A stretch of DNA of 64,000 bases from Folioceros fuciformis (taxonomy: Eukaryota): contig JBNGIO010005800.1 of assembly GCA_049999805.1 (NCBI GenBank), positions 125,031-189,030 of the forward strand. The letters run 5' to 3'. The notes beneath the pieces are model-generated. The model searched no databases. It was not told where the DNA came from and saw only the letters and a program-made list of their open reading frames with translations. A program made the translations under genes and the position numbers. Shown one piece after another: positions 1,828-51,263 of this stretch; the stretch's first letter is position 1; every line of letters begins with the position of its first letter.

Positions 1828-4680
1828 ATGGCGTTCCAGCTGGAGCTCTTGCTGGGTGCGATAACTCCTGATGGGATCTTGCATGATCCCAGCATATTGG
1901 CTGTGAAGCCTAGCTCGTCTTTCGCGTATGAAGGACGTGTGTTCCGCAAGGGGCAGGAGAATGCATGCCCAGCTGCTGGGCAAAAAGGCACAGAAGTCAC
2001 CTGTAATGAAGAAATGACACAGAAAGCTCGGCAGGAGCTCTTGTGGCACCACTGGTTGTCATATCCCTCAGACTGGTGGGACAACAGGGCGGACAAGAAG
2101 AGTCCACGCCATCCCGACTTCAGGCACAAAACTTCAAAGGAGCCTCTGTGGCTCAACAACTCGTATAAACCGGCTTGGGTGGATTTGCAGCTACCCAGTT
2201 GGGATTCGGATTCGCAGCTGGCCAGAGGACCTGGTGATGATAGAGGAGACTCTTGGGTTCACATGCTGGTCAAACGATGCGAGGAAGCAGAACTCAGGGA
2301 TGCTGTAGACGCCTTGGATCTTTTGGTGCAGCGGAGATGTTCTATCACTCACACCCTCTTCTCTCGTGTGCTCAAGCGATGCATAGCTCAGAAGGATCTT
2401 GTTAGTGGCAGGCGCGTGCATTGTCTTGCTATCACAAGTGGGTGCGGGTCTAATGCATTCATGGCCAATCACATCATTGTTATGTATGCTTCTCATGGAG
2501 AATTGGAGGAGGCAGTGAAGGTTTTCTCTACGGTGACTACGCCCAGCATCCACATGTGGTCCACCATCATCTTGGCGCATGCAAGGCACGGTCAGCCAAC
2601 TCAAGCCATCAGCTTGTATCGAGAGATGAAAGAGTCAGGTGTTCAGCCAGACAATCATATTTTTGTGGCAGCTCTGAGGGCATGTGCTTCTGCTGGGGAC
2701 CTGGTTGCTGGCAAGGAGGTCCATGCTCACATCCAGGCCTGTCCTGTCGCGGCTGACATTTTCGTTGGCAACAGTCTGGTGAGTATGTACGCCAAATGTG
2801 GCAGCTTGGATGATGCTCGCGAAGTGTTTGACAGTTTGGTCACGAAGGACGTTGTGACTTGGACTTCCATGATCGCAGGTTACAGTCAGCGGGGTCTTGG
2901 CCAAGAAGCTCTAGCTCTATATGCCGATATGGAGAACGAGGGCATTACTCCAGCCAATCAAGTGACTTTTGTGTCCCTTCTTCAGGCTTGTGCCAGTATG
3001 GGGGCGCTGCAGCCTGGGAAGGAGCTTCACTCACAGATTCGTGAACGTGGCCTTGAAGGAGATGCGATGATCGCCAACTCGTTAGTGAATATGTATGCTA
3101 AATGCGGTCGGTTGCAGGAGGGTCGGAAAGTGTTTGACAGTTTGCGCAGGAAGGACGTGGTCTCATGGACTGCGATGATCGCAGGATATTCTCAGCAGGG
3201 GCTGGGTGAAGAAGCCCTGTCCCTGTATTCGAGTATGCAACAGGAGGGCATCACTCCAGCGAATCGTGTTACGTTTGTATGCCTTCTTCAGGCATGTGCT
3301 AGTGTAGGAGCCCTGCAACAAGGAAAGCAGCTTCACTTACAAATTCGTCAGGAAGGCCTTGAAGGTGATGCAGCCATTGGTAACTGCTTAGTAAACATGT
3401 ATGCTAAGTGCGGGAGCTTGGAAGATGCTCGCAGAGTGTTTGACGCTCTGCCCACAAGGGATGTGGTGTCATGGACTGCCATGATTTCAGGATATACCCA
3501 GCAGGCTCTGGGTAAAGAAGCCCTGTCGCTGTATGCAAATATGCAAAAGGAGGGCATCACGGCGGTGGATCACGTTACATTTGTGTGCCTCCTCCAAGCC
3601 TGCACGAGTGTGGGAGCCCTGCAGCAGGGGAGGGAGCTCCACTCGCAGATTCGAGAAAAAGGCTTGGAGGGTGATCCATTTATTGGCAGCTGTCTGGTGG
3701 ACATGTATGCGAAATGTGGAAGCTTGGATGAGGCCCGCAGAATATTTGACGGATTGCCCACCAGAAATTCTGTGACATGGACAGCAATGGTCAAGGGCTA
3801 TGCTGAAAACGGTGATGGTCACAGGGCAATCCGGTGTTTTGAAGACATGCTTGAGCAAGGTGCGCAACCAGTTGAGACTACTTTCATATGTCTTCTTGTG
3901 GCATGCAGTCATGCAGGCCTGGTGGCTGAGGGCAAAAGGTATTTCAAGATGATGGTAGACGAGCATGGGATTGTGCCCAAGGATTATCATTACAGCTGCA
4001 TGGTTGATCTCCTTGGGCGTGCTGGCCAACTGGACGAGGCAGAAAGCATGTTAAGGAGCACCATACTGAACGATGCTGTGAGCTGGACGGCTCTACTGAC
4101 TGCTTGCAAGATCTACGGTGATGTTGAGCGCGGGCAACGGTGCTTCGACCACCTCGTACGCTTGTCACCTGACATGGCAAGTTCATACGTGCTGTTGGGC
4201 AACATGTACGCCAACGCAGGCCGGTGGGATGATGTGGATAGGATAGAGAAGTTGAGGAAATCAGCCGGTGCCTCGAAAAAGGCAGCAAAGGCATGCATCG
4301 AAGTGAAGAACGAGGTGCATGAGTTCACAGTAGGGGAAGATAGGTCTGACATCTCCTCAAAGCTGAGGAGCGTGAACACAAGGTTGAGGGAGGAAGGAGG
4401 CCACGTCCCACGGACACACCTGGTGCTAAGAACATTGTCTGAGCAAGAGAAGGAGGATGCTTTGTGTGGACATGCAGAGAAGCTGGCCTTGGCATATGGT
4501 CTGCTGAACACGCCGGAAGGCACAACTTTGGTCGTGACGAAAAATCTGCGTATGTGTGATGACTGCCACAGCAGCACGAAGATCATGTCACACCTTGAGA
4601 AGAGAGACATCATCGTCAGAGACGCGCACCGAGTACATCGGTTCATGGATGGGTCTTGTTCCTGTGGGGACAGGCATTGA
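1828..4680 (+). CDS. PLS-class PPR protein with N-terminal OSB-type PDF motif and C-terminal E/DYW:KP-like domain ending DRH (PPR-A, 950 aa)
   Basis: Intronless ORF with P-L-S triplets (MYAKCG..., VVTWTAMIAGY..., VTFVCLLQAC...), E motifs and KKAAKACIEV...HAEKLA...CDDCH...CSCGDRH. Residues 70-122 contain WWDNR..KSPRHPDFRHK..LWL..PAWV. The exact start or an upstream exon is uncertain. Confidence 0.93.
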   Translation: MAFQLELLLGAITPDGILHDPSILAVKPSSSFAYEGRVFRKGQENACPAAGQKGTEVTCNEEMTQKARQELLWHHWLSYPSDWWDNRADKKSPRHPDFRHKTSKEPLWLNNSYKPAWVDLQLPSWDSDSQLARGPGDDRGDSWVHMLVKRCEEAELRDAVDALDLLVQRRCSITHTLFSRVLKRCIAQKDLVSGRRVHCLAITSGCGSNAFMANHIIVMYASHGELEEAVKVFSTVTTPSIHMWSTIILAHARHGQPTQAISLYREMKESGVQPDNHIFVAALRACASAGDLVAGKEVHAHIQACPVAADIFVGNSLVSMYAKCGSLDDAREVFDSLVTKDVVTWTSMIAGYSQRGLGQEALALYADMENEGITPANQVTFVSLLQACASMGALQPGKELHSQIRERGLEGDAMIANSLVNMYAKCGRLQEGRKVFDSLRRKDVVSWTAMIAGYSQQGLGEEALSLYSSMQQEGITPANRVTFVCLLQACASVGALQQGKQLHLQIRQEGLEGDAAIGNCLVNMYAKCGSLEDARRVFDALPTRDVVSWTAMISGYTQQALGKEALSLYANMQKEGITAVDHVTFVCLLQACTSVGALQQGRELHSQIREKGLEGDPFIGSCLVDMYAKCGSLDEARRIFDGLPTRNSVTWTAMVKGYAENGDGHRAIRCFEDMLEQGAQPVETTFICLLVACSHAGLVAEGKRYFKMMVDEHGIVPKDYHYSCMVDLLGRAGQLDEAESMLRSTILNDAVSWTALLTACKIYGDVERGQRCFDHLVRLSPDMASSYVLLGNMYANAGRWDDVDRIEKLRKSAGASKKAAKACIEVKNEVHEFTVGEDRSDISSKLRSVNTRLREEGGHVPRTHLVLRTLSEQEKEDALCGHAEKLALAYGLLNTPEGTTLVVTKNLRMCDDCHSSTKIMSHLEKRDIIVRDAHRVHRFMDGSCSCGDRH

Positions 4681-5170
4681 TAGACGGTGAAGGCCCTCGT
4701 GTGCTCTCGGACCTACTTTCGCCCCAGGCCAAATGTGTAGACCTTACGGAACTGACACTTGACTTCTAAGCTAGATCCAAGGCTGGATGTTTCTCTTGTA
4801 TAGCTACTTACTTGGTTGTCACCTTACAATAAAGCAAGGTGACATACATCTTATCGAGATTTTGCCGATGAGAAGCCATTCAAAGCTTCGTGTGAGAACG
4901 TTGCATGATACAACAGCGAGAGCAGAATATGGTAGTACTGGGCGATGCTCTAGAAGCATGCAGGTAATAATAAATGTGAATGGCTGTGGAACTGACAATT
5001 AAGTGACAGGCCGTGGGAGGCATGTCCTCTATAATGGAACTGAGCTTGACATATCACTCCCACCACTTGCACTTGCAAGCAGAAGCTCCAGGGCATGGAC
5101 TGGTTTGAAGTCAAGCTCAGCTGGAATGAGAGATCGGTTCAGTGACAACTGGGCACTTCACACAGGTCCT

Positions 5171-8100
5171 TCAATGCCCATCTCTACAGGAACAAGCTCC
5201 GTCCTTGAATAGGTGCACTCGGTGAGCATCCCTTACAACGATATCTCTGTTTTCTAGACGTGACATGATCTTTGTGCTGCTGTGGCAGTCATTGCACATA
5301 CGAAGATTTTTTGTTACTACCAAGGTCGAGCCAGCTGGCGTGTTCAGCAGTCCATATGCCAGGGCCAGTTTTTCAGCATGTCCACACAAGGCATCCTCTT
5401 TCTCTTGCTCAGACACTGCCTTCAGCACCAGATGTGTTTGTGGGACATAGCCTCCTTCCTCCTTCAACCTCGTGTTCACAGTCTTCACCTTCGATGAAAT
5501 GTCGAATCTATCTTCTCCTACGGTGAATTCATGCACCTCTTTTCTCACTTCAATGCATGCCTTCGCGGCCTTCTTCATGGCACCTGCTGACTTTCTCAAG
5601 CTTTCTATCCTGTCCACGTCATCCCACCTGCCAGCATTTGCGTATAGGTTACCCAACAGCACATAAGAACTTGCCAGATCAGGTGCTAATTCTACCAGAC
5701 GCTCGAAGCATCTGACTCCACGATCTAAGTCTCCATGGCCTTTGCAAGCACTTAGCAAAGCCGTCCAGCCCACAACATCATTGAATAATGTGCTTCGCAA
5801 CAGATCTTCGGCCTCATCCAGTTTGCCGGACCGGCCTAGGAGATCGACCATGCAACTGTGGTGATGATCCGAGGGCACAATTCCATGGTCATCAACCATC
5901 ATCCTGAAGTATCGTCGGCCCTCATCCACCAGGCCCGCATGACTGCAGGCCACAAGGAGACATATGAAAGTCGTCTCATCTGGCTGAACCCCTTGCTGAA
6001 GCATGTCTTCGAAGCACTTGATTGCCATGCGTCCATCATTATGCTCCGCGTACCCATTGAGCAGCGCAGTCCAGGTCACCAAATTTCTTGAGGGCAATCC
6101 ATCAAACACTTGATGGGCATCTTCCAAACTGCCACATTTCGCATACATGGCGACCAGGGAGCTGCCAATGCAAGCATCAGCTTCAAGCCCCCTTTTCCGA
6201 ATTTGTAAGTGGAGGTCCTTTCCCTGCTGCAGTGCCCCAACACACCCACATGCTTGAAGCAGGCACATGAAGGTAACATGGTCTGCTGGCGTGATGCCCT
6301 CCTTTTCCATGCCGGTGTACAAAGCCAGCGCTTCTCTACCCATTCCCTGCTGAGAATACCCAGAAATCATTGCAGTCCAAGTCACTACATCTCTCTTGGG
6401 CAAACTGTCAAAGACTTCACGGGCTTCGTCCACACTCCCACATTTGCAATACATATCCACCAGGCAGCTGCCGATGAATGTGTCAGACTCTAGGCCTCTC
6501 CTCCGAATTTGTGAGTGAAGCTCCTTGCCCTGCTGTAATGCTCCCGCACTGGCGCACGCTTGTAGAAGGCACACAAAAGTTACATGATCAGCTGGAGTAA
6601 TGCCCTCCTTTTGCATAGATGCATACAGAGAAAGAGCCTCTTTGCCAAGGCCTTGCTGAGAATACCCTGCGATCATGGCAGTCCAGCTCACCACATCCCT
6701 GGTAGGCAAATTGTCAAATACCTTACGAGCATCCCTCAAGCTTCCACATTTAGCATACATATTCACCAAGGAGTTGCCGATGCCTGCATCGGATTCGAGG
6801 CGTCTTTCACGGACCTGTGAGTGAATCTGCTTCCCCTGCTGGAGTGCTCCCACACTTGCACATGCCTGGAGAAGGCACACAAATGTAACATTATTTGCAG
6901 GAGTGATCCCCTCTTGTTCCATGCTTGCATACAGAGCCAAAGCTTCTCGCCCAAGTCCTTGCTGAGAATAACCAGCAATCATTGCAGTCCATGTCACCAC
7001 ATCTCTCCTGGGGAGACTGTCAAACACCTTACGGGCATCATCTAAGCTCCCGCACTTCGCAAACATGGTCACTAAGCAGTTACCAATCACTGGATTGGCT
7101 TCCAGCCCCCTTTCTCGAATCTGCGAGTGGAGCTCTTTCCCTTGTTGCAGGGCTCCCACATTGGCAAAGGCCTGAAGGAGGCACACGAAAGTAACATGAT
7201 CCGCAGGAGTGATGCCCTCGCGTCGCATACTAGCATAGAGGGCAAGGGCTTCAGGACCGAGACCTTTCTGAGCATACCCTGCTATCATGGCAGTCCAAGT
7301 CACCACATCTCTCCTGGGCAAATTGTCGAAGACTTGGCGGGCATCTTCCAAACTTCCACATTTTGCATACATGTTCACTAAGCAGTTACCAATGACTGCA
7401 TCTCCCTCAAGGCCTCGTTCACGAATCTGGGAGTGAAGCTGCTTTCCTTGCTGCAAAGCTTCAACATTTGCGCAGGCTTGAAGAAGGCAAACGAAAGTGA
7501 CATGATTAGCTGGAGTGATGCCCTCATCCTCCATATTTGCATACACCGCGAGGGCTTGTCGCCCAAGACCCTGCTGACTATATCCTGCGATCATGGCAGT
7601 CCACGTCACCACATCCTTCTTGGGCAAACTGTCGAACACCTTCCGAGCTTCATCTAAGCTGCCACATTTGGCATACATGTTCACCAGACTGTTGCCCACG
7701 AACCCATCTGCCTTGCCAGCAAGGGCCTGAATGTCAGCATGCACCTCTTTGCCAGAGACCAGGTCCTCTGCGGAGGCACACGCCTTGAGAGCTGCAACGA
7801 AGACATGGCTGTCTGCCTCGACACCGGATTCTCGCATCTGTCGATACAAGTTGATTGCCTGCGAGGGCTGTCCATGTCGGGCATGCGCCAAGATGATGGA
7901 AGACCACATGTATACGCTGGGATTGCCCACTTGACTGAACACCTGCACGGCGTCCTCCAATTTCCCATGAGAGGCGTACATGCCAATGATGTGAGTGGCC
8001 AAGAATGGGTTGGACCCGCATCCTCTTTTGAGAGCAAGAGAATGAACGCGCTTACCACAAACAAGATCCTTTTGTGCCACGCACCTCTTGAGGACACGAG

Positions 8101-8617
8101 AGATGAGATTGTCGCTAACATAAAATCCCTGCTGGACCAGCCGGTCCAACGCCTCAACAGCCTGGCTCAGCTCTGCCTCCTCGCATCGCACCAACAAGCT
8201 CTGGGCTTCTGAGCCCTGGTCACCATCACCACAAGCAGGTCCCCTGGCCAGCTGTAAATCCCGGCTGGCGAGCTGCGAGTCCACCCAAGCCGGCTTATCA
8301 GAGTTGCTGAGCCATAGGGACTCCTTGGATGTCTTGTGCCTGAAGTCAGGATGGCGGGGGCTTCGTTTCTTCTCTGGCCTGTTGTCCCACCATTCCCAAG
8401 GGTAGGAGAAGAAGTGGTGCCACAGGAGCTCCTGCCGCTCTTTCTGTGTCACTCCTTCGGTGACGGAGGTGCTCGCACAGCAAGCTGGGCGTGCATCATA
8501 CTTCCCCGATCGTCCAGTCGGACAATTTCGGGACACACATCCTGCATCCATGCAAGGGGAGTTTGGCTTTGCGGACGACATTGTGGAGCCGCAGGAGAGC
8601 ACATCCGCAAATGCCAT
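5171..8617 (-). CDS. PLS-class PPR protein with N-terminal PDF motif and DYW:KP-like domain ending DGH (PPR-B, 1148 aa)
   Basis: Intronless paralog of PPR-A. PDF motif at 8431-8270; C-terminus HAEKLA...CNDCH...CSCRDGH. Confidence 0.93.
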   Translation of the reverse strand: MAFADVLSCGSTMSSAKPNSPCMDAGCVSRNCPTGRSGKYDARPACCASTSVTEGVTQKERQELLWHHFFSYPWEWWDNRPEKKRSPRHPDFRHKTSKESLWLSNSDKPAWVDSQLASRDLQLARGPACGDGDQGSEAQSLLVRCEEAELSQAVEALDRLVQQGFYVSDNLISRVLKRCVAQKDLVCGKRVHSLALKRGCGSNPFLATHIIGMYASHGKLEDAVQVFSQVGNPSVYMWSSIILAHARHGQPSQAINLYRQMRESGVEADSHVFVAALKACASAEDLVSGKEVHADIQALAGKADGFVGNSLVNMYAKCGSLDEARKVFDSLPKKDVVTWTAMIAGYSQQGLGRQALAVYANMEDEGITPANHVTFVCLLQACANVEALQQGKQLHSQIRERGLEGDAVIGNCLVNMYAKCGSLEDARQVFDNLPRRDVVTWTAMIAGYAQKGLGPEALALYASMRREGITPADHVTFVCLLQAFANVGALQQGKELHSQIRERGLEANPVIGNCLVTMFAKCGSLDDARKVFDSLPRRDVVTWTAMIAGYSQQGLGREALALYASMEQEGITPANNVTFVCLLQACASVGALQQGKQIHSQVRERRLESDAGIGNSLVNMYAKCGSLRDARKVFDNLPTRDVVSWTAMIAGYSQQGLGKEALSLYASMQKEGITPADHVTFVCLLQACASAGALQQGKELHSQIRRRGLESDTFIGSCLVDMYCKCGSVDEAREVFDSLPKRDVVTWTAMISGYSQQGMGREALALYTGMEKEGITPADHVTFMCLLQACGCVGALQQGKDLHLQIRKRGLEADACIGSSLVAMYAKCGSLEDAHQVFDGLPSRNLVTWTALLNGYAEHNDGRMAIKCFEDMLQQGVQPDETTFICLLVACSHAGLVDEGRRYFRMMVDDHGIVPSDHHHSCMVDLLGRSGKLDEAEDLLRSTLFNDVVGWTALLSACKGHGDLDRGVRCFERLVELAPDLASSYVLLGNLYANAGRWDDVDRIESLRKSAGAMKKAAKACIEVRKEVHEFTVGEDRFDISSKVKTVNTRLKEEGGYVPQTHLVLKAVSEQEKEDALCGHAEKLALAYGLLNTPAGSTLVVTKNLRMCNDCHSSTKIMSRLENRDIVVRDAHRVHLFKDGACSCRDGH

Positions 8618-9097
8618 GTCCAGCGGATGCTCCTACAGCTACTCCAGATGCGTCTACGTATGTCTGCACATTGACGTTTTGAAGACGAGCTCCTCACAAG
8701 TCATCATCCGGAAATGGATATGGCTGGGAAGCGAGCTATCGACAACCATTGTTTGGTGTCACATTTCCCGTCAGTTATTGTCTCTCTAAAACGACACTGC
8801 CGGGCTTCCAAGTTTCCACACACCTTCCTCAGGTAGAATTAGGACATGAAAAGAATCCAAAACAACGATGAACACTGACGAAGGCTGCGTCTGGTCTCCC
8901 TTGGTAGTAGCTTCTCTTTCTTATCAACCTGTTTGTTGTGGCTTCAAAAGTGGACAATGCGTCTGGAAGAGAGGCTTACAGATCTTGGTGGAATAGGCGC
9001 GTGGATTGTGCATCCGTCGCCTGCAAGCCTGAAGCGCCGTAACGCCCAGGACCAGCAGCTCACATTCGTGATGAAGTGAAGACCCAGCAAGGGAACC

Positions 9098-12000
9098 ATG
9101 GTGGTGCAGCTGGAGCTATGTCTATCAGCCAAGCCGAGCTCTTATTTGAGGGATGCAGGATGTGTGCTGAGCAACAGCTGCGAGAGCCCAGTTGGGTTAC
9201 AAGGGCAGCGTCATATGGGGTCGTCTGCTGGTGCAAGCACTGGGTACGAGGAGGGGGTGACGAAAAAAGCGCGGCAGGAGCTGCTGTGGCACCATTTCTT
9301 CTCGAACCCCTTGGAGTGGTCGGACAACAGGCCTGAGAGGAAGGGCCCTCGGCATTCTGACTTCAGGCACAAGATCTCCAGGCAGCCTTTGCGGCTGAAC
9401 AGCTCTGACAAGCCAGCTTGGGTGAACTCGCAGCTGGCCAGCAGGGATTATGACCAGGACTCTGAAGTGCAGACCTTGTTGAAGCGCTGCAAGGAGGCAG
9501 AGCTACGCCAGGCTGTGGAGGCGTTGGAGCAGCTGGTGCAGCGGGGATGCTATGTGAGCGACACTCTCTTCTCTCGTGTCCTCAAGAGGTGCGTTGCAAC
9601 AAGAGATCTTGTTAGTGGTAGGCTAGTCCATTCTCTTGCTCTCAAAGGGGGGCGCGAGTCTAATGCATTCTTGGCCACTCACATCATTGGCATGTACGCT
9701 TCCCATGGCAAATTGGAAGACGCCATGCAGGTGTTCGGTCAGGTGACCAATCCCAGCATCTACATGTGGTCTTCCATCATCTTGGCTCATGCTCGACATG
9801 GACAGCCCTCACAGGCCATCAGCTTCTATCGGCAGATGCGGGAATCAGGTGTTGAACCGGACAGCCATATCTTCGTGGCAGCTCTCAAGGCGTGTGCAGC
9901 CGCAAAGAAGTTAAATTTGGGCAAGGAGGTTCATGCTGACATTCAGGCAACTGCTTTCAAGGTGGATGTTTTCGTTGGCAACAGCTTGGTGCACATGTAC
10001 GCTCAATGTGGCAGCTTGGATGATGCTCGCAAAGTGTTTGAAGGTTTGTCCAGAAGAGATGTAGTGACCTGGACTGCTATGATTGCAGGATACAGCCGCC
10101 AGGGGTTGGGGCAAGAAGCTCTAGCTCTGTATGCAAGGATGCAACACGAAGGCCGCACTCCAGCGAATCATGTCACATTTCTGTGCCTTCTCCATGCGTG
10201 TGCAAGTGTGGGAGCACTGCAGCAGGGGAAGGAACTTCACTCGCAGATTCGAGAACGAGGGCTTGAAGCAAATGTAGCCATTGGTAACTACTTAGTGAAC
10301 ATGTATGCGAAGTGCGGGAGCTTGGAGGATGCCCGCAAAGTGTTTGACAGTTTATTATGCAGGGATGTGGTTACATGGACTGCAATGATCGCAGGGTATT
10401 GTCAGCAGGGGCTCGGTGGAGAAGCCCTGGCCCTGTATGGCAGCATGCAATGCGAAGGCATGGTGGAAGCCAATCATGTCACATTTGCATGCCTTCTCCA
10501 GGCTTGTGCAAGTGTGGGAGCACTGCAGCAAGGAAAACAGGTTCACGCACAGATTCGTGAAAGGGGTTTTGAGGCAGATGTGGTGATTGGTAATTCCTTG
10601 GTCAATATGTATGCCAAATGCGGGGCATTAGGCGATGCACGAAAGATCTTTGATGGTCACGTGGGTAGGAAGGATGTGGTGACATGGACTGCCATGATTG
10701 CAGGATATGCCCAGCAGGGGCTTGGTGAGGAAGCGCTTTCTGTGTATGAAGACATGCGGAAGGAAGGAATCACTCCAGCGGATCAGGTTACTTTTGTGTG
10801 TCTTCTTCAAGCATGCTCGAGTGTGGGAGCACTGCAGCACGGGAAGGAGGTGCACTCACAGATTCGGGAAAGAGGCATGGAGGCTGATCCAATCCTTGGC
10901 AGTTGCCTTGTGGACATGTATGCAAAATGTGGATGCGTAGAGGATGCACGTCTTGTGTTTGACAAGCTGCCCAGGAGGGATGTGGTGACATGGACTGCCA
11001 TGATTGCCGGGTATTCCCAGCAGGGGCTCGGTCGGGAAGGTTTGGCTCTTTACGAATGCATGCAGGAAGAGGGCATCACTCCAGCAGATCATGTCACTTT
11101 CATGTGCCTTCTCCAAGCGTGCAGCAGTGTGGGAGCATTCCAGCAGGGGAAGGAGCTTCACTTGCAGATCCGCAAAAGAGGCCTTGAGGGCGATGCATTC
11201 ATAGGCAGCTGCCTTGTGGACATGTATTCCAAATGTGGGAGTATGGCGGATGCCCGTGAAGTGTTCGACGGATTGCTCACGAAGACTTCGGTGACATGGA
11301 CAGCATTGCTGTATGGCTATGCGGAACACAGTGATGCTCACACAGCAATCCAGTGCTTTGTGGACATGCTCCAGCAAGGGGTCCAGCCAGACGAGACAAC
11401 CTTTACGTGTCTTCTTGTGGCCTGCAGTCATGCGGGCCTGGTTCACGAGGGCCAGCGGTTCTTCAGGATGATGGTCGATGAGTATGGAATCTTGCCCTCA
11501 GATCACCACCACTGTTGCATGGTTGATCTTCTCGGCAGATCCGGCAAACTAGAGGAGGCGGAAGTTTTGTTACGAAGTACAATAGCGAGGGATGTTGTTG
11601 GATGGACAGCGCTGCTGACTGCCTGCAAGAGCTACGGTGATGTAGAACGCGGGCAAAGGTGTTTTGATCATCTCGTAGAATTAGCACCTGATCTTGCAAG
11701 CTCCTATCTCCTGTTAGAGAACCTGTACGCAGATGCAGGAAGGTTCGATGACGTAGATAGGATAGAAAGCTTGAGGAAGTCATCCGGTGCTACCAAGAAA
11801 GCTGCCAAAGCGTGCATCGAAGTGGACAAGGAGGTGCATGAGTTCACAGTCGGGGAGGAGAGGTCTGACATATCCGCAAAACTGAGGAGCGTGACTACAC
11901 GGTTGAGGGAGGAAGGAGGACATGTTCCCCACACACAGCTAGTCCTGAAGGCACTGTCCGAGCAAGAGAAGGAGGATGCCTTGTGCGGGCATGCGGAGAA

Positions 12001-12199
12001 ACTTGCTCTGGCATATGGTCTCCTCCACACTCCAGATGGCACCACACTGCTCGTCACCAAAAATCTGCGCATGTGCAACGACTGCCACAGCAGCACCAAG
12101 ATCATGTCACGCCTCGAGAAGCGAGAGATCATCGTGAGAGACAGGCATGGAGTACATCGATTCGTGGATGGCCGTTGTTCTTGTAAAGACGGGCATTAA
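9098..12199 (+). CDS. PLS-class PPR protein with degenerate N-terminal PDF motif and DYW:KP-like domain ending DGH (PPR-C, 1033 aa)
   Basis: Intronless paralog. PDF-like segment 9278-9436 (WSDNR..HSDF..LRL); C-terminus HAEKLA...CNDCH...CSCKDGH. Confidence 0.93.
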   Translation: MVVQLELCLSAKPSSYLRDAGCVLSNSCESPVGLQGQRHMGSSAGASTGYEEGVTKKARQELLWHHFFSNPLEWSDNRPERKGPRHSDFRHKISRQPLRLNSSDKPAWVNSQLASRDYDQDSEVQTLLKRCKEAELRQAVEALEQLVQRGCYVSDTLFSRVLKRCVATRDLVSGRLVHSLALKGGRESNAFLATHIIGMYASHGKLEDAMQVFGQVTNPSIYMWSSIILAHARHGQPSQAISFYRQMRESGVEPDSHIFVAALKACAAAKKLNLGKEVHADIQATAFKVDVFVGNSLVHMYAQCGSLDDARKVFEGLSRRDVVTWTAMIAGYSRQGLGQEALALYARMQHEGRTPANHVTFLCLLHACASVGALQQGKELHSQIRERGLEANVAIGNYLVNMYAKCGSLEDARKVFDSLLCRDVVTWTAMIAGYCQQGLGGEALALYGSMQCEGMVEANHVTFACLLQACASVGALQQGKQVHAQIRERGFEADVVIGNSLVNMYAKCGALGDARKIFDGHVGRKDVVTWTAMIAGYAQQGLGEEALSVYEDMRKEGITPADQVTFVCLLQACSSVGALQHGKEVHSQIRERGMEADPILGSCLVDMYAKCGCVEDARLVFDKLPRRDVVTWTAMIAGYSQQGLGREGLALYECMQEEGITPADHVTFMCLLQACSSVGAFQQGKELHLQIRKRGLEGDAFIGSCLVDMYSKCGSMADAREVFDGLLTKTSVTWTALLYGYAEHSDAHTAIQCFVDMLQQGVQPDETTFTCLLVACSHAGLVHEGQRFFRMMVDEYGILPSDHHHCCMVDLLGRSGKLEEAEVLLRSTIARDVVGWTALLTACKSYGDVERGQRCFDHLVELAPDLASSYLLLENLYADAGRFDDVDRIESLRKSSGATKKAAKACIEVDKEVHEFTVGEERSDISAKLRSVTTRLREEGGHVPHTQLVLKALSEQEKEDALCGHAEKLALAYGLLHTPDGTTLLVTKNLRMCNDCHSSTKIMSRLEKREIIVRDRHGVHRFVDGRCSCKDGH

Positions 12200-12329: not shown

Positions 12330-12609
12330 TACTCCAAAGAGTGAAGTTTGGATACCCTCTAGTTGGGGATTAAAGTTAAATATTATTTTTTAATAAATAT
12401 TATATATTATTTGTTTTATGAAAATAGGTACTCTCAATCATTATAGTTTAATTTTATAAATATTATTTTTATTTTATTTTTATATAAATAAAATGATATA
12501 TATATTATACTTAAAATAACATAGATAATATCAATTTTTAACTTATCCCATTACAATGCGGGACTTGGATGGGGGCCGAAAGTAAGGGGACTTGGATGGG
12601 CCCAAAGTA

Positions 12610-13520
12610 AGAGAAGGAGGAGAGAACAAGGAGGCTTAAAGCAAAGGTGGAAGAAGAGAGCAAGGAGAAGAAGGAAGCAAGAAGTAAGAAGCAATTGGCA
12701 GCAAGGAGCAAGAGGAGCAGGGAGCAAGAAGGAGCAAGAGGAGCAAGAGGGAGCAAGAGGGAGCAAGAGAAGCAAGAGGGAGCAAGAGGGAGCAAGAGGG
12801 AGCAAGAGAAGCAAGAGGGAACAAGAGAAGCAAGAGGAGCAAGAAGAAGCAAGGAGCAATAGGGAGCAAGGAGCAAGAGAAGCAAGAGGGAGCAAGGAGC
12901 AAGAGGGAGCAAGGAGCTAGAGGGAGCAAGGAGCAAGAGGGAGCAAAGAACAAGAGGGAGCAAGGAGCAAGAGGGAGCAAAGAACAAGAGGGAGCAAGGA
13001 GCAATAGGGAGCAAGGAGCAATAGGGAGCAAGGAGCAAGAAGGAGCAAGATGAGCAAGAGGGAGCAAGGAGCAAGAGGGAGCAAGGAGCAATAGGGTGCA
13101 AGGAGCAAGAGGGAGCAAGAGAAGCAAGAGGGAGCAAGGAGNNNNNNNNNNGGTGCAAGGAGCAAGAGGGAGCAAGAGAAGCAAGAGGGAGCAAGGAGCA
13201 ATAGAGTGCAAGGATCAAGAGGGAGCAAGAGAAGCAAGAGGGAGCAAGGAGCAAGAGGGAGCAAGGAGCAAGAGGGAGCAAGGGGCAAGAGGGAGCAAGG
13301 AGCAATAGGGTGCAAGGAGCAAGAAGGAGCAAGAGAAGCAAGAGGGAGCAAGGAGCAATAAAGTGCAAGGATCAAGAGGGAGCAAGAAAAGCAAGAGGGA
13401 GCAAGGAGCAAGAGGGAGCAAGGAGCAAGAGGGAGCAAGGAGCAAGGGGAGAAGGCAAGAGAAAGAGGACCAACATAGGGAGAAGGCAAGAGAGAGAGGA
13501 CCAACAGAGGAGGAGGGAGG
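12610..13520. repeat. Purine-rich compound satellite (GGAGCAA / GAGGGAGCAA / GAGAAGCAA units) containing an 11-N assembly gap
   Basis: Directly visible; Ns at 13142-13152 with duplicated flanks. Confidence 0.95.
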
Positions 13521-13750
13521 GAGCGCGTGAGTACTATACAATGTTGTAAGTATGTACCTATGTATGTATATAGGAGTGTGCGAAGTAAAAAATTATTTTT
13601 CTGTATTTTTTTTAACTAAGTTTGATATTTATTATTTTTATATTATTTTTCATTATTTTTTCTTATTTCATGATAGTCTTAAGCCTGCAAATCCTATAAC
13701 TATCTATCTTGGCAGTTCTTTTTACGGCTTTGTTTTCATGGTTTAGGACG

Positions 13751-14708
13751 ATGGAAGGAAATGTCACTATCTCTGACGATATGTTGTGTGAAATGGGAAA
13801 ACAGTTCTTTGATAGATTACCAGAAGCAGAAAGGTTGGAAAAAGCACTAACATTTTCTCATGGTTGGGTGGCAAAGTTTAAATATCGACATGACATCAAA
13901 AGTTTTGTGAAGCATGGAGAAGTTGCAAGTGCTGACATATTGCAGGTGGTTCAAGATAGAATGGAAGACATTAGAAGTATCATGCAAGGATACGAGCCTC
14001 AGAATATTTTTAACATGGATGAAACAGGGTTGTTCTATAGATTGGAACCGAACAAAACATTAGCAACGAAGAGGCTGAGTGGGAAGAAAACTCCAAAGGA
14101 AAGGCTAATTGTTGCTTTGACAACCAATATGGATGGTAGTTCTAAATTACCACCCTTTGTGATCAACAAATTCTTGAGGCCCAGAGCTTTTACTAGTCGC
14201 AACATTGGACAAGTGGAGAATTTGAGTATTCATTGGTCAACAAACTCAAATGCTTGGATGTCGATGCCTTTATTTGAGTAATTTATTCTCTTTTTTGATG
14301 CGAACATGAGAGTTAGGGGCCATACTAATGTCTTGCTTCTTTTGGATAATGCTCATGTTCATAAATTATCAGCTGAGACACAAAGTAGGCTTCAAATTAC
14401 AAGGGTTGAATTTTTTCCTCTTAATGTTATGGTTCATTACCAACCAATGGATGCAAGCATTATACAGTCTTTTAAGGCCAATTATAGAAAAAGGCTTGTT
14501 TCTTTTAAGACCAATTACAGAAAAAGGCTTGTTTAGGGTTTAGGGTTTAGGGTTTAGGCTTGTTCAGCATCAAATCCAAGAGATTCAAAATGGTAATTCT
14601 CCTCTTATTGATGTATATTATGCTGTGACTATGTTAGAAAAAGCTTGGCGTACCGATGTTAAAGGAAAAATCATTAGAAATTGTTGGAAATACTTTGGGT
14701 TATGGTAA
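13751..14708 (+). pseudogene. pogo/CENP-B-like DDE_1 transposase pseudogene
   Basis: FSHGWVAKFKYRH, IFNMDETGLFY, KERLIV, NAWM, LLLLDNA, QPMD..II.SFKANYRK and AWRTDV..IRNCWK motifs. In-frame TAA at 14279-81; telomeric insertion and frameshift at ~14531-14558. Confidence 0.88.
14531..14558 (+). repeat. Interstitial telomeric tract (GTTTAGG)x4
   Basis: gtttagggtttagggtttagggtttagg inside the transposase relic. Confidence 0.9.
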
Positions 14709-16150: not shown

Positions 16151-16441
16151 CTGCGCAGGTGGCACGTACAGATATGTCGATCAACAGCTTAGAATGGATT
16201 GGTACCAGCTGGCCCGACCTCGTCCATAGAAAAGGATATGGGACCCGTTTCTCCAGTCAGACCAAGACCAGGTCTTCCACATAGGCCAGGAAAGGACCGG
16301 TAGCAGCATGACACAGCACCTGGTGGATGCCCAAAAGCATTTCCGTGATCACATGGAGGATCACCGTCAACGCACCCGGGCACGACTCTAAAGATGAAGG
16401 CGATGTGAGAGTGACGTCGTCTCGGCGTGGCATCACTATGC

Positions 16442-16449
16442 CTATAAAG
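16442..16449 (+). promoter_or_regulatory. Putative TATA box of GULLO-like gene 1
   Basis: CTATAAAG ~110 bp upstream of ATG 16552. Confidence 0.45.
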
Positions 16450-16551
16450 CGGCGTCACCAACCATTAATGTCACCGATCAGCTCAGCTGTAGAGGTGCGG
16501 TTGGAAGGCTGCAGGAGGGAAAAGCCTCTTCCGCACAGCAGTGAGGTTGTC

Positions 16552-18501
16552 ATGGCAGGCAGAGGAGCTTGGAGGACCCTTCTGCTACTCCTCCTGCTGC
16601 TGCTGCTGCGGCGGGGGGAAAGGGTCAGGGCTCAAGGCATCCACTGCCAGGACCATGACAGGACCTGCACCATCTCGTCCCACTTATCGGTCTGGGGAGA
16701 CCGGCAGGAATGCGCGTTTGCTAACGTGGTGCGCCCAACAACTGAACAGGAGCTGGTGCAAGCAGTGGCAAACGCAGTCCGCCATAACCGCAAGGTGAAG
16801 GTCACCCGCGGGTTCCCGCACTCCACCCCGAAGCTCACCTGCCCCGGGAGCAGCACGGGCACCGTCATCTCCACCGAGCGCTACGACGCGTCAATCGTGA
16901 TCGACAAAGACGTCCGGACGGCGACAGTGGGAGCGGGAGCCAAACTCCACGACCTCCTGGAGGCTCTGGCGGACCAGGGGCTGGCTCTCCCGAGTGTGCC
17001 CGTCTGGTCCTTCTTGTCGGTCGTGGGTCTCTTGTCAACGGGAGCCCACGGATCCTCGATGTGGGAGGAATCGCCCCCGCTCCACGACCGCATTGTGTCC
17101 CTCCGCCTGGTGGTGCCGGCCTCGGCCGCGGAAGGGTACGCGAAGGTGCTGGAGATCGGGGTGGGGTCGGATGAGGAGTTGCTGGCCGCGGCCAGGGTCT
17201 CGCTGGGCGTGCTGGGGGCCATCTCACAAGTGACTATCCGGGCGGACGCTGCCTTCAAGCGGAAGCTCAGCTTGNNNNNNNNNNNNNNNNNNNNNNNNNN
17301 NNNNNNNNNNNNNNNNNNNNNNNNNNNNNNNNNNNNNNNNNNNNNNNNNNNNNNNNNNNNNNNNNNNNNNNNNNCCGCGGCCAGGGTCTCGCTGGGCGTG
17401 CTGGGGGCCATCTCCCAGGTCACTGTCCGGGCGGACGCCATCTTCAAGCGGAATCTCAGCTTCGAGAAAGCCTCGGACTCCGACCTCGCAGAGCGCGTCC
17501 TCGCCCACTCTCAGAAGCGCGAATTCGGGGAGATATTCTGGTTCCCGTCGCAGCGCCAGGCCATCTTCCAGCACTCGAGCCGGGTGGAAGCCTCCGTGCC
17601 AGGAGACGACTCCTACGCCATGGCCGCGCTCCTCCCTCTGCCGCTCGAGCCCGTAGTGGCCGCGCGGGAGTTGGAGGAGGCCGCTGAGGCGACCCGGGAC
17701 CGGACCAAGCTCTGCGATCTGGCCCCCACCCTCATCTCCGCGAGCTGGAACACGGATCCGGACGCGCCCCCCCTGGTGGGTCTGAGCCACCGGATGCAGA
17801 CCTCCCAGGCCTGCACCGTCCGGGAGCCCGGGGACGGGACCTACTGCCTATTCGAGGAGCCCAGGATGCACTGGCACGAGACCTCCTTCACCGTGAACGC
17901 CTCCAGGATCGGAGACTACGTCCGGGACATTGCGGCCCTGCGGGACAAGCGCCCTGACAGCCTCTGCGGGCTGGCTTTCGCGTACGGGCTGTGGTTCCGG
18001 TTTGTCCCAGGCCCATCGCGGGCGCTGCTCGGGGAGGCGTGGGACGTGGTGGATGTGAACGCGCTCTACTTCCGCAGCGCGCCGGCGCAGGCGGAGGAGC
18101 CCAGACTGGACCAGGATGTGTACGACGAGATGGAGCAGCTGGCGATGTTGAAGTACCGAGGGACGCCGCATTGGGGAAAGTCCAACCGGCACGTTTCCTT
18201 CCTCGGGGTGAAGGAGAAGCTAGGAGGTCGGGTGGAGCGGTTTGTGGAGGTGATGAAGCGGCTGGACCCTCAGGGTATCTTCTCCAGCCCATGGACCGAC
18301 GCTGTGCTGGGTCTGGGCGGGACGGAGCTCAACGACCTCAGGCCGCTTTGTGGGCTGGAAGGCATGTGCATCTGCCAAACCGATGAGCATTGCAGGCCCA
18401 GCGCTGGGTATTTCTGTCGCCCGGGATTGGTGTTTCCTGAAGCCCGGGTCTGCAGGTTCGAAGCCTCAGAGGCCTCTCGTAGTCTGAAGGACGAATTGTG
18501 A
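16552..18501 (+). CDS. L-gulonolactone oxidase-like FAD oxidoreductase (plant GULLO family) with signal peptide and C-terminal KDEL; spans a 100-N gap
   Basis: Signal peptide MAGRGAWRTLLLLLLLLL; FAD-binding region (VRPTTEQELVQAV...PHSTPKL..., STGAHGSS, ARVSLGVLGAISQVT); DVYDEMEQLA..YRGTPHWGK; Cys-rich tail CICQTDEHC.P..GYFCRPG.V...ARVC; ends LKDEL. Confidence 0.9.
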   Translation: MAGRGAWRTLLLLLLLLLLRRGERVRAQGIHCQDHDRTCTISSHLSVWGDRQECAFANVVRPTTEQELVQAVANAVRHNRKVKVTRGFPHSTPKLTCPGSSTGTVISTERYDASIVIDKDVRTATVGAGAKLHDLLEALADQGLALPSVPVWSFLSVVGLLSTGAHGSSMWEESPPLHDRIVSLRLVVPASAAEGYAKVLEIGVGSDEELLAAARVSLGVLGAISQVTIRADAAFKRKLSLXXXXXXXXXXXXXXXXXXXXXXXXXXXXXXXXXXAARVSLGVLGAISQVTVRADAIFKRNLSFEKASDSDLAERVLAHSQKREFGEIFWFPSQRQAIFQHSSRVEASVPGDDSYAMAALLPLPLEPVVAARELEEAAEATRDRTKLCDLAPTLISASWNTDPDAPPLVGLSHRMQTSQACTVREPGDGTYCLFEEPRMHWHETSFTVNASRIGDYVRDIAALRDKRPDSLCGLAFAYGLWFRFVPGPSRALLGEAWDVVDVNALYFRSAPAQAEEPRLDQDVYDEMEQLAMLKYRGTPHWGKSNRHVSFLGVKEKLGGRVERFVEVMKRLDPQGIFSSPWTDAVLGLGGTELNDLRPLCGLEGMCICQTDEHCRPSAGYFCRPGLVFPEARVCRFEASEASRSLKDEL

Positions 18502-22950: not shown

Positions 22951-24148
22951 GCTCCCGTGCACTGCTGCCCTGTGTTCAAAGGCAATTGGGGAAACGACGT
23001 TTCCGCAGGCAGCATCATCCTACCAGAGAAAGCGAGCCCCTCCAGCCCTGTTGCACCACCATCCAACATCCGCCCATTCTTTAACATCCCTGTCCTCGGC
23101 CTCAGAATCCACAGTTCACTCCAACACGTGAACACGTGCTGGTCTTCTGCAGTTGTCTCACCTCTCCCCGGTGAGGTTGAGAGGAGGCATTTCCTTGTTG
23201 ATGAAATCCTTATTCTAGGAGTGTACCTAGGACAGATATGCCCCATATTGTGTGTGAAAACTGTATGATCTTTCAATATAGTTTAATATTGCTCGAATTA
23301 CGCATATTTGATTTAAGGTTTTAGTATTATGGCGCTTGAGATAATGCTGTTCGACACTGTAGATGGTGTGTATAAATGTACCCCTTTTGTTGAAAACGAT
23401 ACGATTCCTCGCGATTCCTGCGCTAGCGGAAACCTGAGGTCAAGGCTTCTGGACTCGATTTGAAGCAATGCAGACTGAAAACATGAGCTGGGACGCGGTG
23501 TAAAGCTTTGTTCGTGGTTCCAGCAGATGCCTCAAGCTGCTGCTACCCGGGAAGACGTCCACTCGGGAAGTGGGAAACACTGGACAGTCGAGCGTTGCCA
23601 GCCAGCAGCGCTCAACATTGACAACACATGTCGCTCCCCAAGGCCTACCATTCGTACAATGCGGGCCGCGCGCGGGGCACCGCGGTGACGTTCACCGCAG
23701 GTCTCCGGTGCTTTACGCTTCCGGTCACGGGGAATGTGAAGTGAAGGCTCTGGGCCGCCAAGCAAACCCTTCCACGCCTGCGAGCGCTGACAGCGGACGG
23801 CCTGGTAATTGTGCGAGTCATGGATACCATACAAGCACCGGCGTGTACGCGAATAGCCCAAGCTTGGTTTGTAAGAGTACACTACTGCAAGGTTCTGTTG
23901 TTCATGTACGTGTCTCGCTGCCTGGTCTGGTCAAGCCTTTTGACTCCTTCCTGGCTTCTATCGTTCGTTCCAGGTGGCGTCCAAGAGGCCCTTCCTTCTC
24001 TGGAGGAAAATTAAAGGATCTTGTTCTGACGATGAAATGCAGGCGCAGTTTGGGGACTAGTCTCTGTTTGTGGATGATTGCACAGCGTGTGGTGGTCGCA
24101 GAGGAGTTGATGGGTCTCGGCAATATCCACTACCTGAAATCACATGCC

Positions 24149-40544: not shown

Positions 40545-42938
40545 ATGATGAGGAGGACCGGTGCTGTGGGGAGGAGGATGGCGAGGACTGCCTGTCAATA
40601 TTTCCATCACACTCGGGCCAGCTCTTCCTGGGCACAAGTGGCAGAATCGTGGACAGCACTTCCCGGTAGTCCACCGTTCCATTCGTTTTCTAAGCGTGAC
40701 TATGTTAGAAGGTATAAGTGACTGTTGTTGGCATTTCGGATACGGCATGTTAGGTTTGCCCTTGGTTGTGGCCGTTGACAAATCTTGTTGTCGTCACGCA
40801 GGGTGGCAAGGAAAGATGGATGGATGTCTGATCAGGTTTGGCAGAAACGCTCCGTGGAGGGACAAGGACAACTTTATGAGGCTGTTAGGGACTTGGAACT
40901 CAAGGTTTTGCAACGTTCCTTTGTTTCGAGAGACACTTGGTACAGCGTCCTGAAGGGCTGCATTGCAAAGAAGGATCCTATTCTGAGCAGGCGGGTTCAT
41001 GATCTGATTGTGAGAAGTGGGTACGAGGGCAATGCATTTTTGGCTAATCACATCATTCGGATGTATGCCTCTGAGGGCAGTTTGTCGGAAGCAACAGAGG
41101 TGTTTAGGCAACTGCCTGCTCCAGATGTGTTTGCTTGGTGCTCCATCATTTCTGCTCACTTCAGGCCCGAACACGCCAAGGAAGGTATCCAATTGTACAG
41201 GAGGATGCGTGAATCTGCTCTGGAGCCGGATAGATACGTATTCGTGGCGGCCCTGAAAGCATGTGCTGGTGCAGCAGATTTGGCAGCAGGGAAGCTTGTA
41301 CATGGTGATGTAGTGGACAGTGGGCTGGAGACACATGAGTACGTTGGGAGCACCCTAGTTGACATGTACGCCAAGTGCGGCAGCCTGGAAGATGCTCGTA
41401 AAGTGTTTGACAGGCAACCAAGGAAGAGTGTAGTGATCTGGACTGCCATGATTGCAGGCTATGTCCAGCATGGCCGTGCTCAGGAGGCTCTTGAGCTGTA
41501 TGGAGACATGCAGAAGGATGGCTCAACCTCCCCTAACAGTTTCACACTAGCAAGCTTGCTGAAAGCATGTAGCAACAGAGGAGACCTTAGGATGGGCAAG
41601 AGGGTCCATGCAGATATCTTGGATAGAGGGCTCGAAACAGACTTAGTGATTGGAAATAGTCTGATCGACATGTATGCCAAGTGTGGGAGCCTGGAGGATG
41701 CTCGCAAAATTTTTGATGAGATGTTCGTCAAAGATGTGGTGACATGGAGTACCATAATTGCTGGATACGCACAGGAAGGGCATGATCAGGAATCGCTTGA
41801 ACTATTTGCAAGAATGCAGCAAGAGGGCATCACTCCCGACAAGTTCATATATGTCAGTGTTCTCCAAGCTTGTGGAAGGACAGGGGCCGTACGGGAAGGC
41901 CACCAAGTTCATGCTCACATTGAGGACAGCACATTGGAGATAGATTCTTTTATTGGAAGTGCCCTGGTTGACATGTATGCCAAATTTGGGAGAATGGACA
42001 TAGCTCAGAATGTGTTTGATGGGCTCTCTTCCAAAAACGTGGTCACTTGGAATGCATTGATCAACGGGTATGGCCAGCATAATGGCTGTAAGATGGCAAT
42101 GCACTGTTTTCAAGAGATGCGACGACAGGGAGTTGATCCTGATCACTCCACCTTTGCCATTCTTTTTGTGGCATGCAGTCATGCAGGCCTGGTGGATGAG
42201 GGTTTGCAGTACTTCAGGGCGATGGCAGAAGAGTATGGCATGATGCCCACAGTGACTCACATAACCTGCATAGTTGATATGCTTGCCCGGTCAGGGTGGG
42301 TAGTGGACGCAGAGGCTATGCTGCAGGCCATGCCGTCAAACCAAGATTTCGTGGGTTGGATATCTTTGCTGAGTGCTTGCAGGACTCATAAGAATGTGGA
42401 GATAGGCAAGCGCTGTTTTGACCGCCTCATCCAACTAGAACCTCAGCACTCTGCTAGCTATTCACTCATGTCAGAACTTTACGCAAGTGCTGGCAGGTGG
42501 GCAGATGCACAGAAGATAGATAGTCTCATGACAGCTGCTGGTGCCGAGAAGAAGCGTGCTAAGGCCCTGATTGAAGTGAATGGCCAGGTGCACGAGTTCA
42601 CAGTGGGAAGGATGACCGATGATGTTGCACTGAAACTAAAAAGCCTGAATCGGCATGTGGAGGAGGCGATCGGTTTGCCACACTCAGTTCCATTACCTGA
42701 TGAGAACAACGGAGAAGGTCTATGTGGACATGCTGAGAAGTTGGCAATCGCATACGGTCTTCTGAACACCCCCAAGGGTACAACACTGCTGGTCACAAAG
42801 AACTTGCGGATGTGTGAAAACTGCCACAGGGGAACTAAGATCATTTCCAGGATTGAAAATCGGGAGATTGTTGTGAGAGATGCTCATTGCGTGCATCACT
42901 TCAAGGATGGACGATGTTCTTGTGGCGATAGCTGTTGA
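40545..42938 (+). CDS. PLS-class PPR protein with DYW:KP-like domain ending DSC and no PDF motif (PPR-D), 2 exons
   Basis: Exon 1 40545-40711 (MMRRTGAVGRRMARTACQYFHHTRASSSW..., Arg/Ser-rich and transit-peptide-like); phase-2 intron 40712-40801 (AG/GTATAAGT...CGCAG); exon 2 contains PLS repeats and KKRAKALIEV...HAEKLA...CENCH...CSCGDSC. Confidence 0.9.
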
Positions 42939-51076: not shown

Positions 51077-51263
51077 CCTATCTTCACTTGAAGGATAAAA
51101 GTAATAACTGTCAGTCACTATTTTGATGTAATTTACTTTAAGTATTTAAAACTTACCTAAATGATATTTTGATATAGTTATACATACAATAACTTCAATG
51201 TATTAATGAAATCATCTCTCACATACATATATAGACATCCTTTGATACAATTTTACTTACCGA

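Follow-up and report, generated by a model that had tools for sequence, protein, structure and literature searches.

A predicted OSB-type PDF motif precedes the PPR tract of three candidate editing-factor genes in Folioceros fuciformis and of fern and lycophyte proteins

Background

In the RNA editing of plant organelles, both specificity and catalysis are provided by pentatricopeptide repeat (PPR) proteins of the PPR-DYW kind, which are being engineered as programmable C-to-U and U-to-C editors. Their PPR tracts lie on single-stranded RNA in such a way that the N-terminal repeats face the 5' end of the site, and editing by the DYW domain takes place a few nucleotides 3' of the stretch that is bound. 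In the KP type of this domain (DYW:KP), which is the U-to-C type, the box has the consensus 'KPAxA'; a hornwort 'DRH' subgroup of PLS-DYW:KP proteins, candidates for U-to-C editing, is said to have been described by Gerke and colleagues in 2020 (cited in PMC9478123). Here, I show that three adjacent PPR genes (genes 1-3) in a stretch of 64,000 nucleotides of Folioceros fuciformis DNA (assembly GCA_049999805.1, contig JBNGIO010005800.1, positions 125,031 to 189,030 of the forward strand; the whole stretch is hereafter called the window) carry, between a presequence and the PPR tract, a segment that profile comparisons assign to the PDF motif of OSB proteins (organelle proteins that bind single-stranded DNA).

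The PDF motifs of Arabidopsis OSBs bind single-stranded DNA (ssDNA), according to the available excerpts of three reports (PMC6963530, PMC4166229, PMC6451138); recombinant OSB1 and OSB2 are described there as favouring ssDNA over double-stranded DNA or RNA (PMC4166229), and AtOSB2 as a tetramer (PMC6963530). As to the editing enzymes, the published accounts, available in part, give DYW:KP domains a length of 132-133 residues and state that Lys88, which is shared with the PG (C-to-U) domains, is essential for U-to-C editing (PMC11845758), that HAE is typical of KP domains and that 'DRH' is one of two hornwort KP subgroups (PMC9478123). In the accessible part of the latter source, the descriptions of hornwort DRH/KP proteins mention no N-terminal PDF module, and designer proteins (KP1) begin at the first P1 motif (PMC9478123).

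Results

Each of genes 1-3 is a single, uninterrupted and intronless open reading frame (ORF) in which Pfam recognises a PPR array, then E motifs, then a DYW deaminase (Table 1). A sequence-only reading of this DNA had noticed a segment of about 53 residues ahead of the repeats in all three adjacent PPR genes; all three translations are as claimed, and each segment shares one reading frame with the PLS-PPR tract and the KP ('DRH') DYW domain that come after it. The same reading had spoken of a tandem trio, of which the adjacency stands and the shared strand does not: the orientation is + - +, genes 1 and 2 lying tail-to-tail and genes 2 and 3 head-to-head, with ~480 bp between the latter two. 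The first ATG of genes 1-3 is found 1-6 codons past an upstream in-frame stop, and the three proteins can be aligned at their N-termini. Each gene has one PDF motif, with some 60-70 poorly conserved residues ahead of it.

The identity of the segment was addressed with profiles in both directions. A forward profile of four motif sequences, run against 1.84 billion representative proteins, matched 803 of them at E<=1e-3, a number that falls to 312 at E<=1e-10 and to 26 at E<=1e-30. Among the best 150 of the 803, on which the following counts rest, 80 possess an OB/SSB-like domain, placed before the first PDF motif in 79 of the 80, as detected with a purpose-built OB-domain hidden Markov model (HMM) that was seeded with six Pfam-SSB matches and iterated once; the Pfam SSB family itself was recovered at E<=0.001 in 40 of the 138 proteins scanned, the 12 longest of the 150 having been left out for their size. 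Proteins named OSB2 and OSB3 by NCBI are among the strongest matches listed, such as P0009 ('protein OSB3, chloroplastic/mitochondrial-like'), which has four PDF motifs (E 6e-61). Conversely, a profile of 187 motifs taken only from the 80 OB-bearing proteins, with no PPR protein included, matches the three ORFs at positions 2-59 of its 60 (E-values in Table 1), and the next match in the window has an E-value of 1.8. The window motifs retain the positions conserved in OSBs, namely W, W-D-x-R, K, P-D-F, L-W and P-x-W. On the strength of these profiles the N-terminal segment of genes 1-3 is classed as a true OSB-type PDF motif, in line with the match to OSBs proposed in the sequence-only reading, both the forward and the reciprocal comparison being significant. 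Pfam has no family that covers the motif in the N-terminal parts, where it gave only a sub-threshold match to DUF3368 at residues 139-178, in the first PPR-like helices.

Genes 1-3 share with OSB proteins the PDF motif of about 50 residues with the same conserved positions, and differ from them in the rest of the architecture: in an OSB, the OB/SSB-like domain is succeeded by 1-5 PDF motifs at the C-terminus, and there are neither PPR repeats nor a deaminase. No OB domain was detected in genes 1-3, either by Pfam SSB (whole proteins and N-terminal parts) or by the OB HMM, whose scores were negative (E 0.27 and 0.41). With the OB domain absent and the PDF motif N-terminal rather than C-terminal, the predicted products are not OSBs. 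Three forward-profile matches of unusual build deserve mention, P0005, P0046 and P0048, which come from Kingdonia, Coptis and Striga: the Kingdonia protein has 13 PDF motifs, in the Coptis model three PDF motifs are linked with a kinesin motor, and the Striga model, named ICR2, combines an SSB domain with three PDF motifs; the latter two look like merged gene models.

The three paralogs are 71-76% identical at the protein level, and they differ mainly by exact blocks of 102 residues, each equivalent to one P-L-S triplet; relative to gene 2, gene 1 is without two such blocks and gene 3 without one. Target specificity has probably diverged by triplet gain or loss. Pairwise Nei-Gojobori ratios of nonsynonymous to synonymous divergence (dN/dS) are 0.06-0.13 in the PDF motif, 0.06-0.09 in the E+DYW region and 0.11-0.17 in the PPR tract, and 0.25-0.47 in the linker and 0.29-0.67 in the presequence, all of which are rough values because dS, at ~1 or above, is near saturation. 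This dS also implies that the duplicates are old. By the ratios, the motif has been under selection as strong as that on the catalytic domain; the PDF motif, like the DYW domain, has been retained by purifying selection. In the gene 3 motif, S replaces the P of P-D-F and R replaces the W of L-W, two positions that are invariant or nearly so among 138 family members, and this copy may be losing its function while those of genes 1 and 2 retain theirs.

AlphaFold2 models were obtained for the motif alone (13-row alignment; mean predicted local distance difference test score, pLDDT, 74.3) and for residues 53-400 of gene 2 (7-row alignment; mean pLDDT 86.6). In both, the motif forms two helices with two to three very short strands between them, and in the longer model a stretch with pLDDT <50 comes after the PDF module, followed by regular PPR helix pairs. 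The models suggest that the PDF motif is a small module of its own, flexibly tethered. Comparisons with known structures gave nothing meaningful, be it a sequence search of the PDB with the module (best E 0.61), Foldseek against the PDB (no match at E<=0.001; best a WW-domain pair, E 5.4) or VIA-align against 48,161 chains (none with Z>=5; best the N-terminal region of RNase H3, Z 3.5); such weak results do not make the fold of the module new.

The C-terminal domains of genes 1-3 have HAE at domain position 65 and the K of KNLR at position 88, and their zinc ligands are supplied by HAE (HxE) and by CDDCH or CNDCH (CxxCH); the C-terminal triplet is DRH in gene 1 and DGH in genes 2 and 3. The box KAAKACIEV contains no P-G and no S-W and keeps the K-x-A-x-A spacing, with A in the place of the name-giving P of the KP consensus. 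In common with the hornwort DRH PLS-DYW:KP proteins, genes 1-3 have a PLS tract, E motifs, a DYW domain of 133 residues, HAE, Lys88, CxxCH, a non-PG box and a DRH/DGH tail. With the reservation of A for the box P, these features fit the hornwort DRH-type DYW:KP class, and the three genes are candidate U-to-C factors.

The window holds a further PLS-E-DYW:KP gene, PPR-D. When the motif profile was run against all six-frame stop-to-stop pieces of the window, exactly three matches emerged (E 2e-44 to 7e-44), the next having an E-value of 0.22; being the only three in the window, they leave PPR-D without a copy in any frame. With both the forward and the reciprocal profile, no PDF motif was found for PPR-D in any frame, nor anywhere else in the window, and PPR-D therefore provides the internal contrast that the sequence-only reading had seen in it. 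As to its own start, the first ATG of PPR-D is at codon 14 and almost nothing precedes the first PPR-like helices, so that there is no obvious presequence; the gene may have an upstream exon or another start.

The combination of PDF motif and PPR repeats extends beyond the window. Among the best 150 of the 803 forward-profile matches, 10 have the motif ahead of PPR repeats; the named carriers are the lycophyte Diphasiastrum complanatum and the ferns Ceratopteris richardii, Adiantum capillus-veneris and Pteridium aquilinum. The Pteridium entries are ORFs of Trinity transcripts, hence in Pteridium the motif and the PPR repeats are on one mRNA. A second profile, of 13 PPR-linked motifs, was run against the longer proteins of a collection of 5.8 billion and gave 375 matches at E<=1e-3 among 7,999 scored candidates. 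Of the best 120 of the 375, 62 are PPR proteins of Diphasiastrum, almost every one from a locus of its own, and a further 5 are PPR proteins of fern or other origin. Most of the others are OSB-like and come from seed plants, ferns, a moss (Sphagnum) and green algae; many entries in this list are named OSB2 or OSB3. PDF motifs stand ahead of PPR repeats in 79 of the 265 stored matches, in 1-4 copies, some of the 79 being isoforms of one locus; for Diphasiastrum this amounts to at least 60 PPR proteins with 1-4 N-terminal PDF motifs. Among the best 150 of the 803 and the best 120 of the 375, no PPR-linked named match derives from a seed plant, moss or liverwort, an observation that does not establish absence elsewhere as it concerns these best matches only; seed plants supply most of the OSB matches listed.

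Eighteen of the 79 PDF-PPR proteins have a DYW domain, all of them from Diphasiastrum, with a WIE-type box and a GDYW tail in 18/18 and HSE in 17/18; by these residues all 18 are of the canonical C-to-U (PG) type. The remaining proteins end in or before the E motifs, and some of them may be truncated gene models. The carriers P0004, P0091, P0158 and P0177, of fern or other origin, stop within the E1 motif or just past it and lack a DYW domain; the fern carriers of this kind would need a deaminase in trans, or else are not editing factors. The tie between the fusion and the U-to-C type that the sequence-only reading implied is not supported by these counts: the combination of PDF, PPR and DYW is not confined to DYW:KP proteins, the DYW-bearing Diphasiastrum carriers are PG throughout, and PPR-D, a KP-type protein, is without the motif.

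The PDF-PLS-PPR proteins of Diphasiastrum, Adiantum, Ceratopteris and Pteridium, whose entries are titled 'hypothetical protein' or 'pentatricopeptide repeat-containing protein', follow the same order as genes 1-3 (presequence, PDF, PLS-PPR), and their PDF motifs group with the window motifs and not with the OB-linked ones. They differ in having 1-4 PDF copies and in the C-terminus, which is DYW:PG (18) or ends in or before the E motifs, and is never KP among those seen. Taken at the level of sequence, PDF-PPR proteins make up a large family that is seen in hornwort-like, lycophyte and fern sequences, and whose members have a DYW domain of one kind or the other or lack it. Among the matches listed, P0105, a fragment of 401 residues, is the one most closely related to the window genes, with 52% identity over the N-terminal part. 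Contigs from the sequencing runs of three other organisms, ~92% identical, span the motif and first PPR repeats of gene 1, and their insertions and deletions come in frame-preserving sets. Word-indexed searches with single queries matched only P0004 (1/3 and 1/17 candidates). An exact look-up of four window proteins in a protein collection found no identical entry, and a search of the ESM Atlas returned no usable match.

The origin of the PPR-linked motifs was approached with a tree of 155 PDF motifs, 50 of them PPR-linked (the three window genes, all nine fern or other carriers, P0121, P0146 and 16 other Diphasiastrum carriers drawn at random) and 105 from 45 randomly drawn OB proteins; only motifs that cover at least 49 profile positions were kept. 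The label 'PPR-linked' changes 2 times on the tree, compared with a mean of 42.4 in shuffles, and none of 500 shuffles was as low. The window motifs belong to a group of 15 rows with the fern carriers and P0105 (SH-aLRT 94, not starred), and a second group of 36 rows unites Diphasiastrum motifs with one Adiantum protein. A single clade of all 50 is not rejected by the approximately unbiased (AU) test (p 0.77), and the likelihood of the constrained tree is higher by 27.5 log units. The tree is compatible with a single capture followed by spread through PPR gene duplication, which 59 columns alone could not prove. Spacing before P-x-W was tried as a marker of PPR-linked motifs and is not diagnostic, being 6-7 only in PPR-linked and 4-7 in OB-linked motifs.

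Discussion

Taking as established the architecture, the identity of the motif, its retention by selection and the wide family, I infer a function for the PDF motif as follows. With a probability of roughly 0.55, genes 1-3 are old, intronless nuclear paralogs whose products are site-specific RNA editing factors targeted to organelles, in which the PDF motif serves as an accessory binder of single-stranded nucleic acid. From the N-terminus onward, the protein would consist of the poorly conserved presequence of ~60-70 residues, the PDF module of helix, strands and helix, a short flexible linker, a PLS-PPR tract expected to read the RNA sequence, the E motifs and a DYW:KP domain (DRH-type) that would perform the chemistry. 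The PDF module would bind single-stranded nucleic acid independently of sequence and, given its place N-terminal to the PPR tract, would touch the RNA immediately 5' of the element that the tract recognises; such a contact would raise affinity or keep the target RNA unfolded, a role that can be likened to that of the separate helper proteins of seed-plant editosomes.

Several points weigh against an accessory RNA binder. Genes 1-3 are known here from DNA alone, and the motif could, in principle, be removed together with the presequence. The gene 3 motif has lost two residues that are invariant or nearly so, PPR-D has no motif, and most PPR genes presumably do without one. The AlphaFold2 models are uninformative on whether the module docks to the PPR tract. 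Finally, recombinant OSB1 and OSB2 are reported to favour ssDNA over RNA (PMC4166229), which fits a tether to DNA better than a clamp on RNA.

Such a tether would mean that the PDF motif binds single-stranded organellar DNA, in transcription bubbles, R-loops or replication and recombination intermediates, either concentrating the editing factor where nascent RNA emerges or exposing ssDNA to the deaminase-fold domain. It is a possible, if rather doubtful, explanation: ssDNA binding, preferred over RNA, is the sole PDF biochemistry reported in the accessible excerpts (PMC4166229, PMC6963530, PMC6451138), and the W, D, R, K, PDF, LW and P-W residues conserved in OSBs are kept in the window, yet a single motif of 53 residues is less than the OB-plus-PDF arrays of OSBs, which are said to act as tetramers (PMC6963530). 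Moreover, PPR tracts and DYW domains are known as RNA-directed, and the data of this analysis do not bear on the choice between DNA and RNA. The tetrameric state of AtOSB2, taken from the same partly available source (PMC6963530), would also suit a module for protein-protein contacts, in which the PDF motif mediates self-association, or docking to OSBs, editosome or nucleoid proteins, instead of binding nucleic acid; the many fern and Diphasiastrum PDF-PPR proteins without a DYW domain would need a partner in trans. This appears unlikely, as no evidence of oligomerisation through PDF was found and the excerpts credit the motif with ssDNA binding rather than assembly (PMC6963530, PMC6451138).

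That the motif lies outside the working protein, as a relic of gene fusion, as part of what is cleaved with the transit peptide or as sequence upstream of the true start, could be entertained for a locus known from DNA alone in which the gene 3 copy is partly degenerate. It is made decidedly unlikely by a motif dN/dS of 0.06-0.13 over duplicates with dS ~1, by the conserved first ATG and aligned N-termini, and by a layout that recurs in transcript ORFs of ferns and in at least 60 gene models of Diphasiastrum. Very improbable, finally, is an adaptation peculiar to U-to-C (DYW:KP) editing factors: the three window carriers are KP-type, and the named carriers are lycophytes and ferns only, which with window genes of the hornwort kind are the clades that have DYW:KP, as far as the available text of PMC9478123 tells. 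It is contradicted by the 18 DYW-bearing Diphasiastrum carriers, all PG, and it is at odds with the many carriers that have no DYW domain at all and with the motif-free, KP-type PPR-D.

Full-text literature searches found no paper describing a PDF/OSB motif fused to PPR/DYW editing factors, in accordance with the impression of the sequence-only reading that the fusion had not been functionally described, although a mention in Gerke 2020, Gutmann 2020, Zaegel 2006 or in supplements (PMC9478123, PMC11845758, PMC13393729, PMC13386178) is possible. An OSB survey of 2026 required, according to its available part, an OB domain and a PDF domain together; a kingdom-wide survey of editing-factor fusions of the same year catalogues RRM-PPR and other fusions, and the accessible text contains 'OSB' 0 times (PMC13386178). 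Given these criteria and scope, and with no Pfam model for PDF, both surveys would miss a PDF-PPR fusion. What the sequences point to is a set of known modules in an undescribed, widespread arrangement.

The nearest functional likeness is to helpers of PPR editing factors that act in trans or by fusion (MORF proteins, ORRM and RRM-PPR fusions, OZ), in which, as in PDF-PPR proteins, a sequence-specific PPR is joined by a general module that binds nucleic acid or has an enhancing effect; those modules are unrelated to PDF. MORF proteins are not known from the lineages considered here. It may be ventured, tentatively, that PDF-PPR proteins are a distinct, ancient class of editing factors that arose once, and that PDF either does a MORF-type job in hornworts, lycophytes and ferns or, where transcription takes place, links editing to the single-stranded DNA of the organelle. 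If true, this would help to explain how heavily editing lineages handle hundreds to thousands of sites. The PDF module would then be a new component of the editing machinery in lineages without MORF, one that is under selection, stands ahead of the PPR tract, occurs in at least 60 genes of one lycophyte and escapes surveys that rely on Pfam. Designer editors are another place where it would be a candidate for addition. The fusion also extends the known use of the PDF motif beyond OSB proteins and raises the question of RNA binding.

Features of the window

Table 1. Features of the PPR genes in the window (positions are those of the whole stretch; classes are predicted)
Feature	Coordinates	Strand	Description
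Gene 1	1828..4680	+	950-aa ORF; presequence, PDF motif, PLS-PPR tract, E motif, DYW:KP domain ending DRH; Pfam PPR 1.3e-87, E_motif 2.4e-14, DYW_deaminase 9.9e-35
PDF motif, gene 1	2035..2193	+	Residues 70-122, 53 aa; OSB-only profile E 6.6e-18, profile positions 3-59 of 60
DYW:KP domain, gene 1	4279..4677	+	133 aa; box KAAKACIEV, HAE at 65, Lys88, CDDCH, tail GDRH
Gene 2	5171..8617	-	1148-aa ORF; architecture as gene 1, two PLS triplets more; Pfam PPR 2.9e-120, E_motif 1.3e-13, DYW_deaminase 8.9e-37
DYW:KP domain, gene 2	5174..5572	-	133 aa, tail RDGH
Linker, gene 2	8201..8269	-	PDF motif to first PPR helix; model residues 73-80 within it have pLDDT <50
PDF motif, gene 2	8270..8431	-	Residues 63-116, 54 aa; OSB-only profile E 2.8e-18
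Gene 3	9098..12199	+	1033-aa ORF; architecture as gene 1, one PLS triplet fewer than gene 2; Pfam PPR 1.2e-93, E_motif 1.5e-12, DYW_deaminase 1.2e-33
PDF motif, gene 3	9278..9436	+	Residues 61-113, 53 aa; OSB-only profile E 3.6e-16
DYW:KP domain, gene 3	11798..12196	+	133 aa, tail KDGH
PPR-D	40785..42938	+	717-aa ORF; PLS-E-DYW:KP without PDF motif; box KRAKALIEV, HAE, tail GDSC

Among the sequencing runs listed for the locus, none is labelled as RNA. The one run that contains all sampled words of the locus also covers the intergenic DNA, without differences, and is probably the source DNA.

The neighbourhood of the PPR cluster is flanked by transposase remnants at 13709-14281 and 21073-22962, one of them Tc5/pogo-like (HTH_Tnp_Tc5 + DDE_1) and the other PIF/Harbinger-like (DDE_Tnp_4, E 6e-25). 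The region 12538-13504 is of low complexity, with runs of L, S, P, A and C in several frames and a short N run, probably a simple repeat and an assembly gap. Two paralogous genes resembling L-gulonolactone oxidase lie on opposite strands at 16327-18501 and 24149-26071, the first containing an N run and the second having FAD_binding_4, ALO and a GULLO2-like C-terminal domain. Ordinary nuclear genes are found further on, encoding a poly(A)-binding-like protein with three RRM domains and MLLE (49262-51118), a cupin (53051-53995) and the splicing factor SYF1 with HAT repeats (55438-57249).

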